From contig CACALG010000001.1 of the NCBI GenBank assembly GCA_902533295.1, positions 19,048 through 83,047 on the forward strand: 64,000 nt of DNA, given 5' to 3'. Positions 3,024 to 49,416 of the stretch are shown here, piece after piece. This stretch comes from an uncultured marine group III euryarchaeote. Lineage in GTDB: Archaea; Thermoplasmatota; Poseidoniia; MGIII; CG-Epi1. The notes under the pieces were generated by a model. That model saw only the letters and a program-made list of their open reading frames with translations, ran no database searches and was not told the origin of the DNA. The translations under genes and the position numbers were made by a program. Position 1 is the stretch's first letter. Every line of letters begins with the position of its first letter.

Positions 3024-4502
3024 TTGAAAAAACGTAAGGCAAGATTAAGAGGAACTAAAACAGCAGCTAAATTTGAGCAAAAGAAGTTGATGTCTCGTAT
3101 TAAAGAATTGAAGGAAAATCCAAAAATATTGATACCTAAAACTCCTCCAGGTAGTGAAGCTGAGAAGGTTTATTCAAGAGTTCTAAAAGAAATGGAACTA
3201 GCTAAAGAACAATATGAGAACCCACCTGGTTTCTTTTCAAGAATGATGGGAAATAGGGTTAAGGATCCTTTAGCAAAGGCATATGGTGCAACTCTCACAG
3301 TTTTAGACTCAGGTGCTCCAGTAATGGCAATTGCACGTTTCCCTCATGGTGAAGTAAATTATGTTATGAGAGGATCGGGGTTATCCAAAGAAAAATTGAT
3401 TGGTGTGCAAAATCATCACCATAGATTATGGTCACGTTTTGCGCATTTAGATTATGTGAAAAAGTATAAATTTTTCATGTATGCTTTAGACAAAGGCCTT
3501 GTTTGTACAGGAACTTCACCTAAATATCCAAAAGCTTTGTGGGAAGAGGCGTGTAGAACTCTTAAAATTAAAAAGGGTGGTAATGGTATAGAAGGAATTC
3601 AGATTCGCTGTAAATCATTGAACGAATTAGCAGTTTTACCTGTGAAGAAAGTCTCGAAATCTAAAGAAAATAGTTATAGCCATTTTCTTAGAAATCAAGT
3701 AGCTTTTGAACAGGATTTAGATTTTGAGATTACTGTTTCAACCTTCCTCTCTGAAATTATTGATGATATTCCTAAAGAATTATTTTCGGGTTATTTGACA
3801 GGCACTGCTACTGATTCAGATTTATGGAATGCAGTAGTTAGTTTTCAAAAGGAAAAAGTAAAAGCATTAGATGAGCAATATTTCATTATATCAAATACTA
3901 TTGTAGATAGTAAGGAATTAATCAATAAGATTAGTAGTAATAAGATTGATCAGGCAATTATAGAGGATATCCTGAAAGATTGCAAAGACACTATAGTAAT
4001 AGATAATTTTACACTATCAGCATTTACAGAATATACCTGGGAGTCTGCAGGAAGAGAAATAGTTAATAGCATAGATTCAAAGAAATTAGAGGATTATAAT
4101 GGAGAAAACTCGCTAGAATTATTAAGAGATTTGTACAATAAAATTGTCAAAGATAGTTTGACCAGTGATTATCCAAGATTCAAATCTCTCAGTGAACCAT
4201 TAAAGTTGATAGACGATGTCGTAAGGATGTTGAAATCAGGAGAAAAAGATAGTGCTATCAAGGCAATAGAGAGTCTTTCATCAAATAATAATATGACTAA
4301 ATCAGTGTCATGGGCTACATTGATATGTCTTAATGCTACATCTAGTAGGGCCTGGAAATATAGTAAGGAAGAGCAATCTCTTGGTGAATCACTTAAAGAA
4401 TTAGTACAAAGTTTAATTGATAGTCAACCATCTAAATATTTAGTAATATTAGAAGAGATATCGTCAAGAATAGGACTTGGTAATAAATTGGAAGTTATTT
4501 AA
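3024..4502 (+). CDS. hypothetical protein (492 aa; TTG start, a later ATG start is possible)
   Basis: Long ORF with no recognisable family motifs; basic N-terminus. Confidence 0.35.
   Translation: MKKRKARLRGTKTAAKFEQKKLMSRIKELKENPKILIPKTPPGSEAEKVYSRVLKEMELAKEQYENPPGFFSRMMGNRVKDPLAKAYGATLTVLDSGAPVMAIARFPHGEVNYVMRGSGLSKEKLIGVQNHHHRLWSRFAHLDYVKKYKFFMYALDKGLVCTGTSPKYPKALWEEACRTLKIKKGGNGIEGIQIRCKSLNELAVLPVKKVSKSKENSYSHFLRNQVAFEQDLDFEITVSTFLSEIIDDIPKELFSGYLTGTATDSDLWNAVVSFQKEKVKALDEQYFIISNTIVDSKELINKISSNKIDQAIIEDILKDCKDTIVIDNFTLSAFTEYTWESAGREIVNSIDSKKLEDYNGENSLELLRDLYNKIVKDSLTSDYPRFKSLSEPLKLIDDVVRMLKSGEKDSAIKAIESLSSNNNMTKSVSWATLICLNATSSRAWKYSKEEQSLGESLKELVQSLIDSQPSKYLVILEEISSRIGLGNKLEVI
4494..4502 (+). 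promoter_or_regulatory. TATA-like element (TTATTTAAA) about 27 nt upstream of tRNA-Val
   Basis: AT-rich TATA-like box at the typical archaeal distance from the tRNA 5' end; lies inside the 3' end of the upstream CDS. Confidence 0.25.
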
Positions 4503-4528: not shown

Positions 4529-4605
4529 GGGTCCGTGGTCTAGTTGGTTATGACGTCGCCTTGACATGGCGGAGATCCCCGGTTCGAATCCGGGCGGACC
4601 CACCA
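4529..4605 (+). tRNA. tRNA-Val (anticodon GAC), CCA encoded
   Basis: Hand-folded cloverleaf: acceptor GGGTCCG/CGGACCC, anticodon loop TTGACAT with U33, T-arm CCCGG-TTCGAAT-CCGGG, discriminator A followed by CCA. Confidence 0.85.
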
Positions 4606-9191: not shown

Positions 9192-9240
9192 ATTTTTATT
9201 CGAAATCAATTTAGCGCTAGGCAGCCAACCCTAAATCTTA

Positions 9241-10707
<1,467 letters not shown>

Positions 10708-44333: not shown

Positions 44334-47243
44334 TCAACCGAATACGCTTAAACCTGGTGAATCAACCATTTTCTCTAAGGTATTGCTTATGCCGTGGTCT
44401 TGACCAAGAACTTCTTGAGCTTTTAGCATTAAACATTTTAGCTCATTTCTTTCCAATCCTTCCAATGCAGGCATTATATTGGATTTAATTACATCCTCTA
44501 ATGCTCTATCTAAATCATATTGCCCTCGAGAATTAAAGACAGTCAACATTGAATCTATAATTACTGCAGGACCAATCTTTCTATAAGTTCTAACACCTCT
44601 TGCAATTTCATCATCTCTAGATTGAGGTAACTCTTCTTCCTCCAAGAAATTCATAAATTTATTGAATGCTTTGAACATTGTCCCATCATCATCATAAAAG
44701 TCAAACATTTCTTTGGCATACCAATCCTCCTCTTCACTGTCCTCAGGCCTATCAGGTGCAATTCCCAACTTATTCAGTTTATTGAACACAAATATAGGCA
44801 TACGTCTGTACTCATCATCTCTATCAGGAAGACCAATTTCAACGAAAGCAAATCTTCTCATTAAAGCGTGACCCACATTGAAAAGAGTATTCTTATCTTG
44901 AGTATTCATAGTTCCAATTATTCTGAATTCTGGTGGCATCATAAACGGAGCCCCGCCAGTCTCTTTTGCTGTAAGAAGTGCTTGCTTGTCCCTGTACTCA
45001 AACACCGTAAATAATTTACCAAAAGCTTCATCGATATTTGCTCTATTAAACTCATCGATTACTAAATAATGAGGTTTGCCATCCTCTTGCATTGTTTTTT
45101 CACAACTCTTTGCAGCATCTGCAACATAACCATCTTTGAAAAAATAACCTCCTGAATCATCTGGTGAGATACCACCAATAACTTCGAAATTAGACCATTC
45201 TGCATTTGCAGTTACAATGGTGTAATTAGGAATAGGACTGCCGTCTTTTCCCTCTTTGACTCCACATATTTGACTCAGCAAAAGATTAGCTAATGCTGTT
45301 TTACCAGTACCTGGATCTCCATACAACATTATGTTTCTACCAGATTTAAGGTGTGTTACTGTCTGATTAATAGTATCTTCAGTCGTTGAATAATATTTTG
45401 ATAATTCTTCATAGTCAACATTGTAATCGACTTTCATTGCTTTTCGAATCTTTGGAGATTCAGCTAATTCTTCTTTCAAATCCTTTTCTAAATCATCTAA
45501 GTGAGAAAGATCAGCTCCATAATTTTCATCCTCTGTTGGCTTGATGTCTATTGTTGCTTCAGGAAATTCTGAAAGAAGCCTATCCATTGCATCTTCTAAA
45601 CTAATTTCTTTAGGTGTTGATGATGATGGAGTTTCGTCAGATTTTGGCCCATCTTCTGCCTCAAAAGAAGAATCGAAGGGATCTGAGGAAGGGGGACTAG
45701 ATAATTGCATTTCCATCATTTTATCTCTGAATTTCTCTGCACCAAATTGCCAACCATACCATATAGCACCTCCAGAAACTATGAGTGGAATTAGAAACAT
45801 AGCCCATTCTTCACTCGATTCAGGAGATGAAATATCTGAACCTGAAAGTAAAGCAGGAGCAATCATTGTTGCGAATAAAGTGCCTATTCCTGCTACAAAT
45901 AATCCAAAATAAGCAAACCCTTCCATGCTTTCTTCGGATTTCCTTTTCCGGTAAAATAAGAATACACCCAAAAATGTAATAACCATAAACAAAACAGTAA
46001 GAATCCAGTCTCCCTGTTCAAAATAAAAATTAGCCCCATTACGTAATAAATTCCATAACAATACAATGTACTGGAATCCAAGACCAAACAATATGAAGAA
46101 GAAATATTTTGCTTCTTCCATATCTTTCAAACGAATTGTTTGAAGAATATAGGCTGCAATACCTATCAAAAGAGCTAAAACACCAAGCATTAAAACTAGC
46201 ATTTCACCCGCTTGAAGATTAAGCATCACTGTTGCAGTTCCCATTGGTGGGTCTGCGGATGCACAAGCAGATTGAAGATCTGGGATTGTACTATCGTATG
46301 ATCCAACTGCGTCACATGAAGCCCATGGTCCACGCACCCAATTATGGTGTATAGATCCAAATACTAATGAACCGGCTCCCACAAAGGAATAAATTGTACT
46401 CAGTGGAGCCTCTCCAATGTCTTTTCCAGTTACTGCATACAAAAATACGATATAAGATACAATAATTATTATTAGAGAAGACGTCGCTCCTAGAGATGAA
46501 TAAAATCCATCTAGTGCACCTTTTGGATATGTCTCATTAATGAATGACTCACCTTCTGTAAGCTTTTCATCATTTGCGCTAGAATATCCACCGCCTACAT
46601 AAACATAAATAATAAGCATCACAAAAACACACAGAATTAATGGAGCCATGATATTACTATCATTAATCCGTCTTGCTTGTATCATAATTAATAGAGCAAG
46701 GAGCGTAAGCAAACCAAAAACAGACTGAAATTGATGAGTATCTACTTTGAAATCGGATGTATCAAAATTATCTCCTTCACCGACACGACCCCCCGGTCCA
46801 TTATTCAAAACCAACGGACATCCATCTTTATCTCCACGAACATCTATATCCGACCAACCTGGACACACAAGTGGGTTATTATCATCAGTCCAACCAAGTA
46901 AAGTCAACTGCGCTTTTTCTTCATCAGTTAACTCTTGTTCTATCTCGCTATTTGACTCTGGAGCCTCATCATTGTAATGTGGGATGTCTCCTGTTGTATA
47001 ATACAAAATCAAACCTAAGAGGGCAACAGCAATCAAAAATTGTAAAGCTGGCAAGTAAAAACTAGGTTTAGTTTTGATTAAAGGTGGTTTAGAAGTTGCA
47101 GCAGGCTTACCTTCAGATTTAGAAACTGGTGTCTCCACTTGAGAAGGACCTGAATCCTTAGCTCCAGACAGATTTACACCGCAAATATTACAGAATGGTG
47201 CATTATCTTCAACATCTACAGCACAGACTGGGCACTTTTTCAT
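44334..47243 (-). CDS. McrB-family AAA+ GTPase fused to an N-terminal zinc ribbon and a polytopic (~9 TM) membrane domain
   Basis: N-terminal CPVC...CNIC zinc ribbon; multiple hydrophobic helices across residues ~60-580; C-terminal AAA+ domain with Walker A LYGDPGTGKT and McrB-signature motifs VIDEFNRANIDEAFGKLF and IIGTMNTQDKN...ALMRRFAFVEI (cf. E. coli McrB IDEINRAN, IGLMNTADRS, ALRRRF). Confidence 0.65.
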   Translation of the reverse strand: MKKCPVCAVDVEDNAPFCNICGVNLSGAKDSGPSQVETPVSKSEGKPAATSKPPLIKTKPSFYLPALQFLIAVALLGLILYYTTGDIPHYNDEAPESNSEIEQELTDEEKAQLTLLGWTDDNNPLVCPGWSDIDVRGDKDGCPLVLNNGPGGRVGEGDNFDTSDFKVDTHQFQSVFGLLTLLALLIMIQARRINDSNIMAPLILCVFVMLIIYVYVGGGYSSANDEKLTEGESFINETYPKGALDGFYSSLGATSSLIIIIVSYIVFLYAVTGKDIGEAPLSTIYSFVGAGSLVFGSIHHNWVRGPWASCDAVGSYDSTIPDLQSACASADPPMGTATVMLNLQAGEMLVLMLGVLALLIGIAAYILQTIRLKDMEEAKYFFFILFGLGFQYIVLLWNLLRNGANFYFEQGDWILTVLFMVITFLGVFLFYRKRKSEESMEGFAYFGLFVAGIGTLFATMIAPALLSGSDISSPESSEEWAMFLIPLIVSGGAIWYGWQFGAEKFRDKMMEMQLSSPPSSDPFDSSFEAEDGPKSDETPSSSTPKEISLEDAMDRLLSEFPEATIDIKPTEDENYGADLSHLDDLEKDLKEELAESPKIRKAMKVDYNVDYEELSKYYSTTEDTINQTVTHLKSGRNIMLYGDPGTGKTALANLLLSQICGVKEGKDGSPIPNYTIVTANAEWSNFEVIGGISPDDSGGYFFKDGYVADAAKSCEKTMQEDGKPHYLVIDEFNRANIDEAFGKLFTVFEYRDKQALLTAKETGGAPFMMPPEFRIIGTMNTQDKNTLFNVGHALMRRFAFVEIGLPDRDDEYRRMPIFVFNKLNKLGIAPDRPEDSEEEDWYAKEMFDFYDDDGTMFKAFNKFMNFLEEEELPQSRDDEIARGVRTYRKIGPAVIIDSMLTVFNSRGQYDLDRALEDVIKSNIMPALEGLERNELKCLMLKAQEVLGQDHGISNTLEKMVDSPGLSVFG

Positions 47244-47282
47244 TAATGGACAGTTAAGAGTATTGGTTAAAAGCTTTTGATT

Positions 47283-47972
47283 ATGGCAAACGTTCTTAAC
47301 AACCTTTTCAATGCGAAAATAATGTCTAATGATTTAATGACTCTAAGAGATTTAAGAGTCCAAACTTTAAAGGAAAGAAGAGAAGGAAGATTAACCAAAC
47401 TTCCCTCTCATTTCTACAGAAGAGTATACCAATTAGAAGCAAATATTAGGATGTTTATAGAGGATTCAAAAGATAACCCACAAAAACTTGGGAAGGCAAA
47501 CGCAGATGTAAGGAAATTTTTAGACATGAAATTAGAATTACACAAACATAGGGAAAGAAAGTTGACAGATTTAGCCAGAGAACGGATCAATGGCCAGAAT
47601 CCTAATACAGATAATGTTCACAAAAATGAACAGGAATATCTCACATCACTCTGCGAAGTTATTGAAAATCATAGAAAGAAAACACTTCTGAGTAAAGATA
47701 ATGGAGAAAGTGAAGAACCGGAAATTAAAGAAACAAAACTCGAAGAAAAAGTAGAAGAAGAAATTATCGAAGAAGAACCTGTAGAAGAAAAGAAAGAAAT
47801 CGCAGACGAATATATAGAAGTAGAAGTTCTTGAAGATTTACCTACATTTACAGGAATGGATGCAAAAAATTATACTTTAAAAAATAACAAAAAAGAAATT
47901 ATTCCAATATACAATGCCAAGATATTGAGTGATGCAGGAAAAGTAAAAATTATTACTGAGGTGAAGGCCTGA
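47283..47972 (+). CDS. GINS complex subunit, Gins51 (Psf1-like) candidate
   Basis: N-terminal helical A-domain pattern (LRDL..ERREGRLTKLPSHFYRRV) and C-terminal B-domain-like segment (VLEDLPTFTGMDAKNYTLKNNKKEIIPIYNAKILSDAGKV); ATG at 47283 preferred over the in-frame TTG at 47277. Confidence 0.4.
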   Translation: MANVLNNLFNAKIMSNDLMTLRDLRVQTLKERREGRLTKLPSHFYRRVYQLEANIRMFIEDSKDNPQKLGKANADVRKFLDMKLELHKHRERKLTDLARERINGQNPNTDNVHKNEQEYLTSLCEVIENHRKKTLLSKDNGESEEPEIKETKLEEKVEEEIIEEEPVEEKKEIADEYIEVEVLEDLPTFTGMDAKNYTLKNNKKEIIPIYNAKILSDAGKVKIITEVKA

Positions 47973-48154
47973 CCTACAAAACCACCGATAAGGGCATATT
48001 AATTACAGACGAAAGATTAGCTGCACAAATATACAATAAAGGAAAAACAGGAACTACCCAGGAAAAAGGTAACCTGTTATTAAGGCCTGAAGAAGCATTA
48101 TATTGCGATTATCGAGGTGATTTTGAGCTTTCAGATAACGAGAGAAAGAAATTC

Positions 48155-48706
48155 ATGTCAAATAATTATACAGTTTACAGAGATCTAAAAGAACGTGGTT
48201 TAATAGTAAAAATTGATGATTTTGGCCTAAGAGTTTATGACCGAAAAACTGAAACTAAAGGACAAGCATCTGCAATTGTTTTGCCTAAAAATTTCGACGA
48301 AAAAATAGATTTTAGCAATATTTTTAATGAACTGGAAAAGGGACTTGAGAGAAGAGTCCAAATTGGAATAATAGATTCTGACAATGATGTAGTATATTAT
48401 GTGATTAAAGGCATCAAATGGGATGAAACTAAACTAAAAGAAGGTCAAAAAAGTACAATTACAGACAAGGAAGTTCAAGAACTACTCGAGAAAGGATACC
48501 AAATAAATTCTGGATTAAAATTTGGAACACATTACAGAGTCTACAACTATGAGTCAAATCATGCCCCTTGGCTAATACACGTCATAAAAGAAGGAATTAA
48601 TTGGTTAGATATTGCAAGAATGGTACGTGTAGGTCATGGTGTCAATAAGACAATAGTTTTAGCATACAAACAGAAATGGCTTAGTATTGAATGGATTAAA
48701 CCTTGA
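48155..48706 (+). CDS. endA: tRNA-splicing endonuclease EndA (catalytic repeat plus degenerate repeat); probably begins upstream near 47960 without a canonical start codon
   Basis: C-terminal catalytic domain GYQINSGLKFGTHYRVYNYESNHAPWLIHV; preceding degenerate repeat VYRDLKERGLIVKIDDFGLRVYD; an EndA N-terminal-domain-like segment (GILITDERL...EEALYC) continues in-frame upstream of the ATG. Confidence 0.65.
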   Translation: MSNNYTVYRDLKERGLIVKIDDFGLRVYDRKTETKGQASAIVLPKNFDEKIDFSNIFNELEKGLERRVQIGIIDSDNDVVYYVIKGIKWDETKLKEGQKSTITDKEVQELLEKGYQINSGLKFGTHYRVYNYESNHAPWLIHVIKEGINWLDIARMVRVGHGVNKTIVLAYKQKWLSIEWIKP

Positions 48707-49416
48707 TAGTTGGACTCTACACCAAAGATTTTGCTTTACTTAACAATATCACAAATAAGATAAAAGATCAAAAAATTAAACTTCGCCACCTAGATAATCT
48801 TTCAAATTTAGGAAAGGATTTGCAAATAATTATTTCTAAAAGAAGAATTAAGAATTGTAAAATACCTCAAATACAACCTGAAAATTTGGACGTTCTAGAA
48901 TTGAAATTAAGATGTAAACTATATACCTGTTCTGGTTTAGTAATAGGAATAGATCCTGGTGGCATGATTGGCCTATCTGCAATAGGTACTGGTAGAATAT
49001 TGTTCATGAATACTTATGATAATCCTAATGATTTAGCCATAATTGTTAAATCTATATATTTAGAAATAGGGCTAAAAGCGATTAAGATTGGATTAGGGTC
49101 TCCACCTGAGAGAACAAGAATATTAGACGTACTCAAAGAATATTCAAGTATCATTCAATTAGTCAATGAGCAAAATAGTGGAAGTGGGAGTCATACTGAA
49201 GCTGCAACAATAATTGCTTTGCGCCAAGGTAAATATAATTTAGATGAAAAATACAGACCTAAGGATGGAGAAATATCATGGATTCAGAAGGAATCAAGAA
49301 GATTATCAAAAGGATTAGTTACAATAGACAAAGAACTTGCTCATGAAATACTAATTGGGGAAAAGACTATGGATGAAGCCATAAAAATTTACACAAAAAA
49401 AATGAAACTTCGGTAA
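48703..49416 (+). CDS. putative RNase H-fold nuclease (RuvC/YqgF-like)
   Basis: GIDPGGMIGLSAIG resembles the first catalytic-Asp strand of RuvC/YqgF; C-terminal HTEAATIIAL resembles the RuvC terminal catalytic helix; low similarity. Confidence 0.3.
   Translation: MIVGLYTKDFALLNNITNKIKDQKIKLRHLDNLSNLGKDLQIIISKRRIKNCKIPQIQPENLDVLELKLRCKLYTCSGLVIGIDPGGMIGLSAIGTGRILFMNTYDNPNDLAIIVKSIYLEIGLKAIKIGLGSPPERTRILDVLKEYSSIIQLVNEQNSGSGSHTEAATIIALRQGKYNLDEKYRPKDGEISWIQKESRRLSKGLVTIDKELAHEILIGEKTMDEAIKIYTKKMKLR

Follow-up and report, generated by a model that had tools for sequence, protein, structure and literature searches.

The gene for a predicted tRNA-splicing endonuclease, EndA, in an uncultured Marine Group III (MGIII) euryarchaeote most likely begins at a CTG codon, a near-cognate start that is kept across most related loci. 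The gene lies on contig CACALG010000001.1, in a 64,000-nucleotide stretch that we analyzed as a whole and to which we refer as the window, and with initiation at CTG 47969-47971 it would span 47969-48706 and encode 245 residues. Calling of ATG, GTG, and TTG starts yields a much shorter open reading frame (ORF) of 183 aa, which runs from ATG 48155 to TGA 48704-48706. The same frame is open upstream to 47960, directly after TGA 47957-47959, and contains no ATG, GTG, or TTG between 47960 and 48154. An earlier note on this DNA had recognized the open frame and had read it as the N-terminal domain of EndA; when we re-read the frame, our translation equaled the one given there, and the described 13-nt overlap with the upstream ORF, which ends in a different frame with TGA 47970-47972, was recovered as well. 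Only the statement that 48155 is the sole ATG needs correction: it is the first in-frame ATG, and a further in-frame Met codon lies in the catalytic domain (..IARMVRV..).

When we went through the window's open frames of 120 codons or more, EndA stood out as the only one of ~55 real genes with such a long open stretch (65 codons) ahead of its first canonical start, and two further cases turned out to be shadow ORFs overlying longer genes. An alternative genetic code or stop codon readthrough was considered and rejected, as all three stop codons end ORFs in the window (TAA 33, TGA 20, TAG 9) and the EndA frame contains several stop codons 5' of 47960.

EndA domains and the codon at the gene junction

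The 62 codons that precede ATG 48155 encode a genuine EndA N-terminal domain, as supported by a Pfam match, by the alignment with Thermoplasma acidophilum EndA, and by an AlphaFold2 model. In the 248-aa conceptual translation, PF02778 (tRNA_int_endo_N) matches residues 13-62, or 10-59 when counted from the CTG (E=9.5e-5), with 22.3 bits, which is marginal with respect to the gathering score of 21; the match vanishes when the 183-aa ORF alone is scanned, and several orthologs have a precomputed PF02778 match. The top PDB sequence match, obtained in a sequence search of which a profile version was also run, is T. acidophilum EndA (2OHC), with residues 18-118 of the query aligned to residues 19-118 of the chain. 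As position 16 of the NCBIfam models for homodimeric EndA aligns with residue 18, the protein is in register with the CTG start. The AlphaFold2 model, calculated from 35 orthologs, has a mean predicted local distance difference test score (pLDDT) of 73.6 (~72 for residues 1-20) and shows the expected topology of the N-domain, with strands at residues 3-6 and 9-12, a helix at 15-25, a strand at 36-38, and a helix at 40-47. Its best Foldseek matches are 2OHC, 2GJW, and 1RLV (E 1e-11 to 6e-13).

The remaining part of the protein comprises a degenerate structural domain and the catalytic domain. The degenerate domain is matched by Pfam Sen15 (E=4e-5), the NCBIfam models for EndA beta-subunits cover residues 60-151, and PDB 1A79 and 3IEY_B align with this C-type domain. 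PF01974 covers the catalytic domain (E=4.2e-25, 88 bits vs a cut-off of 27), and NCBIfam TIGR00324 (endA) scores 67.5 bits vs a cut-off of 59.6. By alignment with 2OHC, the catalytic residues are the Tyr in HYRVY, the His in NHAPW, and the Lys in GVNKT (..FGTHYRVY..NHAPWLIHV..GHGVNKT..), which we take to correspond to the catalytic triad of Methanocaldococcus jannaschii EndA, and these positions are invariant or nearly so across the 35 orthologs. The protein is thus a predicted EndA (tRNA-intron lyase) that comes nearest to the homodimeric alpha'2 enzymes. Poseidoniia are part of Thermoplasmatota, so T. acidophilum EndA is also taxonomically near. As in the enzymes of T. acidophilum (2OHC) and Archaeoglobus fulgidus (1RLV, 2GJW), a first repeat composed of an N-subdomain and a degenerate structural C-subdomain is followed by the catalytic C-domain. 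Unlike these enzymes, which have 289-305 aa, the EndA of the window has 245 aa, starts with CTG, and lacks ~40 residues of which the second repeat's N-subdomain consists: query residues 118-163 (~45) stand opposite 2OHC residues 118-200 (~82), and the AlphaFold2 model has a coil or linker at 149-166. The two complete tandem repeats of alpha'2-type EndA are therefore not present, although the best fold matches are alpha'2 enzymes. Throughout the MGIII family, EndA is a compact protein of 245-247 aa with three modules, the N-domain, the degenerate C-domain, and the catalytic C-domain.

For the analysis of the start codon, we compared the eight GTDB species representatives in which the gene is present and 80 metagenome loci, which gave 86 usable loci with 81 unique genes. 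The codon that aligns with 47969-47971 is CTG in 69 loci, TTG in 12, and ATG in 5, and after duplicate removal the numbers are 66, 10, and 5. When the window is aligned at the DNA level with the eight genomes, the junction is near-invariant, reading GAGGTGAAGGC[C/T]TGA, and in every locus the start codon overlaps the upstream gene's stop codon, as NTGA or, in two loci, as TGATG; in the window, this stop-start overlap of two unidirectional genes is the 4-nt CTGA 47969-47972. Between the preceding stop, which lies 1-27 codons upstream, and the aligned codon, canonical in-frame starts are absent from all loci. On the 3' side, the positions of the first canonical start in the CTG loci are spread over codons 10 to 149; none of these alternatives is conserved, and many of them would remove most of the protein. 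The CTG of the window therefore stands in frame at the position where orthologs have their canonical start, and no canonical codon replaces it. The earlier note would have given up its reading if all orthologs started at the equivalent of 48155 and lacked the N-domain, and we found the opposite: database orthologs of 245-247 aa begin with M/L-T-Y exactly at the codon that matches the CTG, those with TTG or ATG at this codon are annotated full-length as 247-aa proteins, and in one GenBank record of a metagenome-assembled genome (MAG; NZXJ01000002.1, labelled Marinimicrobia) the ortholog is already annotated from CTG. Shorter ortholog calls (235, 229, 208, 193, 183, and 173 aa) start at scattered internal positions.

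In a midpoint-rooted neighbor-joining tree, CTG occurs in all deep lineages, TTG characterizes one derived clade, and ATG arose twice inside this TTG clade. In the derived TTG/ATG clade, the sequence after EndA differs as well (loci L006, L007, L025, L026, L029-L040, L045, and L048): the stop codon is often TAA, followed by AT-rich sequence instead of the overlapping downstream gene, and the operon has therefore been rearranged in the lineage that changed the start codon.

Codons 2-62 appear to be translated and constrained, because the ratio of nonsynonymous to synonymous polymorphism (pN/pS) among CTG loci is 0.33 in this region and thus near the 0.28 of codons 63-245, and because the corresponding substitution ratio (dN/dS) of the N-domain region is low in the comparison of the window with locus L001 (0.028/0.420 = 0.07). 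Codons 2-62 are free of stop codons and frameshifts in all 66 unique genes of the CTG lineages. The periodicity of the column entropy changes from the frame of the upstream gene to the EndA frame at the CTG codon, and Tyr codon 3 shows only wobble variation, from which it follows that translation starts at or before codon 3.

The C of the CTG is itself the fourfold-degenerate third base of the last codon of the upstream gene (GCC for Ala or GTC for Val). Any base at this site leaves the upstream protein the same, and A, T, or G would give a canonical start. C occupies the site in 81% of the unique sequences. At 31 conserved fourfold-degenerate EndA sites in the same 81 sequences, its share averages 12.7% and reaches 30% at most, and the commonest base averages 52%. 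With a mean pS of ~0.7, synonymous sites are near saturation. An internal control is provided by the next junction, where the EndA stop overlaps the start of the downstream gene with the same NTGA geometry, N being the wobble base of a Pro codon: here, the 69 loci have ATGA (34), TTGA (24), GTGA (10), and CTGA (1). Judging from these alignments, canonical starts interchange freely at the control junction, whereas CTG is held at EndA. The single CTGA overlap (L003, ~3740-3750), where relatives have ATGA, TTGA, or GTGA, may be a second CTG start in the clade.

Furthermore, the CTG is preceded at a functional spacing of 4 nt by the Shine–Dalgarno (SD) sequence GAGGTGA, which is complementary to the 16S rRNA of the same genome; the sequence UCACCUC in the 3' tail of this rRNA, GGATCACCTCCT, pairs with it over 7 bp. 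The motif is almost invariant in 79 unique loci, wobble positions of the upstream gene included (entropy 0.00-0.56 bits at positions −9 to −3), and it is built of the codons GAG, GTG, and AAG, which are rare in this genome of 35% GC and account in the EndA genes for 16% of Glu, 12% of Val, and 20% of Lys codons. The predicted energies of the SD/anti-SD duplex are −10.5 to −11.8 kcal/mol in the 66 unique loci with CTG, −7.2 to −14.2 kcal/mol in the 10 loci with TTG, −5.8 to −8.5 kcal/mol in the 5 loci with ATG, and ~−2.4 kcal/mol at the control junction, which is without an SD (69 loci). No SD precedes ATG 48155, and no RNA element was detected at the junction in an Rfam scan of the whole window, which gave the 16S rRNA and a tRNA-Val only.

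Alternative explanations for the missing canonical start

The earlier note had left several options open, among them initiation at ATA or ATT. A non-canonical start further downstream, for example at ATA 47993 or ATT 47999, would turn the CTG into a mere wobble context of the upstream stop codon. Both codons are allowed in translation table 11, several of them are in frame, and gene callers choose a TTG at codon 11 in some relatives (P0001, P0002). We nevertheless regard a downstream start as unlikely, since codons 2 (Thr/Asn) and 3 (Tyr) are conserved with coding-type variability, residues 3-6 form the first beta strand of the N-domain in the AlphaFold2 model, and the SD would be ~28 nt away from the ATA; at codons 9-11, Ile, Val, and Leu codons replace one another, as in a hydrophobic strand and not as in a start, and the constraint on the C would be left unexplained. 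It is quite improbable, too, that translation yields nothing but the 183-aa product from ATG 48155 and that the region before it is the decaying remnant of a lost N-domain. This ATG is the first canonical start, and public 183-aa calls exist in the close relatives P0047, P0048, and P0098, but the low dN/dS and pN/pS of codons 2-62, which resemble those of the rest of the gene, and their intactness in all CTG-lineage genes argue against decay. In addition, the ATG at codon 63 is not conserved, being replaced elsewhere by TTG, AAA, TCG, and others, and has no SD in front of it.

An internal SD can stimulate frameshifting in bacteria, as in dnaX and prfB, and as EndA is read in the −1 frame with respect to the upstream gene, GAGGTGA could be thought to stimulate a programmed −1 frameshift in the last codons of this gene, by which a GINS–EndA fusion would be produced. 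We consider this highly improbable. The overlap at 47960-47972 reads GGTGAAGGCCTGA and contains no slippery heptamer of the type X XXY YYZ (GAG GTG AAG GCC TGA), the overlap of sister lineages at this place is an ordinary TTGA or ATGA, with TGATG in two loci, and in every locus the EndA frame is closed by a stop codon 1-27 codons upstream. An error of sequencing or assembly, either an indel or the misreading of an ATG or TTG as CTG, could not have been excluded by the observation in a single window, but it is almost certainly not the explanation for a CTG that recurs in 69 loci, whose assemblies and projects are independent and include a single-cell genome as well as several MAG sets. Of the options in the earlier note, it is thus non-canonical initiation that our comparison favors, and specifically at CTG 47969, the codon at which orthologs have TTG or ATG.

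Probable initiation at CTG and its possible role

How could translation begin at this CTG? EndA is probably co-transcribed with the upstream GINS-like gene, and its initiation is probably coupled to the termination of the latter. A ribosome that terminates at the overlapping TGA, or a small subunit that is recruited de novo, would be held by the pairing of GAGGTGA with the 16S rRNA, which would place the CTG in the P site, and initiator Met-tRNA would decode it there with a mismatch at the first position. The combination of a weak start codon with an invariant strong SD would then be a conserved setting by which the output of EndA is fixed, probably at a low level, and low expression of EndA may be the purpose of the arrangement.

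Conserved weak non-canonical starts are known from bacteria, namely the AUU start of infC, which is autoregulated by IF3, and the AUU start of pcnB. In the MGIII clade, a near-cognate start is likewise kept in one gene, with canonical starts in use elsewhere in the genome; in contrast to the bacterial cases, initiation in this archaeon is of the aIF1/aIF2 type, the codon is CUG instead of AUU, and the start lies in a 4-nt stop-start overlap. Termination–reinitiation at −4 overlaps of the ATGA type has been established experimentally in Haloferax volcanii and Escherichia coli (PMC10666635). The MGIII gene pair resembles these systems in that it is unidirectional with a 4-nt NTGA overlap conserved in all related loci, and in that the next operon junction is also NTGA. 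It differs from them in that N is C at EndA and hence not part of a canonical start, and in that the strong SD makes de novo initiation inseparable from reinitiation; moreover, the GINS-like protein and EndA are not known to be parts of a single complex. Near-cognate initiation sites have been found by ribosome profiling in H. volcanii (PMC7261190) and CTG-started small ORFs in Methanosarcina mazei (PMC11456600), whereas reviews still give GUG and UUG as the only non-AUG start codons of archaea (PMC4705826). EndA shares with these archaeal sites, and with eukaryotic CUG initiation, the putative CUG start and a eukaryote-like machinery. Most of the archaeal cases are alternative sites or small ORFs that lack comparative support, whereas the CTG of MGIII EndA would serve a core housekeeping gene as its only start, with conservation demonstrated by comparative genomics only. 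Non-canonical starts and overlap coupling are thus already known, and the EndA CTG is a new example. In our literature searches, we found neither a report linking Marine Group III to tRNA-splicing endonuclease nor one on a conserved CTG start in archaea.

It is possible, but in our view rather doubtful, that the CTG is an actively selected control point and not a tolerated defect, by which EndA initiation is kept weak and dependent on start codon stringency. If this were so, stringency could be sensed, for example, via aIF1 levels or via the translation of the upstream GINS-like gene, and the dose of the tRNA-splicing endonuclease would be tied to the state of replication or growth, making this an archaeal counterpart of the infC AUU. 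The seemingly compensatory weakening of the SD where the codon became ATG would then be the footprint of stabilizing selection on the initiation rate.

Several points weigh against initiation at CTG or limit what can be concluded from it. The organism is uncultured, and its CTG initiation is predicted from the comparison of sequences. Where measured, CTG performs very poorly as a start, and non-AUG codons are discriminated against by archaeal aIF1 (PMC4705826). In this genome, CTG does not serve as a start codon in general: a search for GGTGA in front of candidate starts of long ORFs, and another through the open frames of 120 codons or more, revealed no second CTG start in the 64-kb window. 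The first residue of EndA may be either Met or Leu. That CTG is ancestral in MGIII can be stated only provisionally, as the tree was rooted by midpoint without an outgroup, and the weaker SD of the ATG loci, which would fit a compensation between SD and start codon strength, is no more than suggestive with only two independent origins of ATG.

The practical consequence is that gene finders limited to ATG, GTG, and TTG truncate EndA in most Marine Group III genomes. The public calls of 183, 193, 208, and 235 aa are without part or all of the N-domain, and because the callers take the first internal TTG, ATG, or GTG, most public entries lack PF02778; domain-based classification of the EndA type is therefore biased in this clade. 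In the ortholog group (P0007, P0047, P0059, P0098, P0106, and others), there are at least 10 different public call lengths, ranging from 157 to 247 aa. Initiation other than at AUG, GUG, or UUG is poorly documented in archaea, and MGIII EndA appears to provide comparative support of unusual strength for a near-cognate CUG start under purifying selection in an essential archaeal gene, strengthened by the control junction and by the possible SD compensation. It offers a concrete test system for start codon stringency and translational coupling in archaea.

Neighboring genes and features of the window

The coordinates of the features are compiled in Table 1. The upstream gene, which precedes EndA in all related loci, has an alternative TTG start at 47277. 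The earlier note had called it GINS-like, and this label keeps some backing from Pfam matches to Sld5 (E=0.0033) and PSF1_C (E=0.079), both under the cut-off; it gained nothing from the PDB sequence and NCBIfam searches, in which the gene had no match, and the assignment as GINS-like stays weak. The downstream gene, which adjoins EndA in most MGIII loci, has a sub-threshold match to DUF460 (E=0.066) and is without an NCBIfam match.

Table 1. Positions in the window of the EndA gene, its junctions, and the rRNA features.
Feature	Position	Strand	Remarks
Upstream gene, weakly GINS-like (Gins51-type domain order)	47283..47972	+	TGA stop 47970-47972 overlaps the EndA start; different frame
Shine–Dalgarno sequence GAGGTGA	47958..47964	+	4 nt before CTG; within the last codons of the upstream gene, GAG GTG AAG GCC
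Putative EndA initiation codon CTG	47969..47971	+	Aligned with ATG/TTG starts of orthologs; 4-nt CTGA overlap with the upstream stop
EndA, predicted full coding sequence	47969..48706	+	245 codons plus TGA; TIGR00324, 2OHC/1RLV/2GJW matches
EndA N-terminal domain, residues 1-62	47969..48154	+	PF02778, 2OHC alignment, AlphaFold2 model; not recognized when only ATG/GTG/TTG starts are called
Degenerate structural C-type domain of the first repeat, residues ~63-150, Sen15/beta-subunit-like	48155..48418	+	Pfam, NCBIfam, PDB
Catalytic C-terminal domain	48479..48679	+	PF01974; Tyr, His, Lys aligned to solved EndA enzymes
Downstream gene, 237 aa, function unassigned	48703..49416	+	From the ORF list; TTG start overlaps the EndA stop (TTGA); internal control junction
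Anti-Shine–Dalgarno tail GATCACCTCC	9241..9250	-	3' tail of the genome's own 16S rRNA, read directly
16S rRNA gene	9240-10707	-	Rfam SSU_rRNA_archaea, 1504 bits

The 16S rRNA gene is complete, and as no 23S or 5S rRNA match was found in the 64-kb window, the rRNA genes appear to be unlinked. A single tRNA-Val(GAC) gene is located at 4529-4605 on the plus strand, ~4.6 kb from the 16S rRNA gene. Divergent from the GINS-like gene, a 969-aa ORF on the minus strand (44334-47243) encodes a protein with an N-terminal Cys-rich motif that resembles a zinc ribbon, a long multi-pass hydrophobic region, and a C-terminal ATPase domain with a P-loop (GDPGTGKT).

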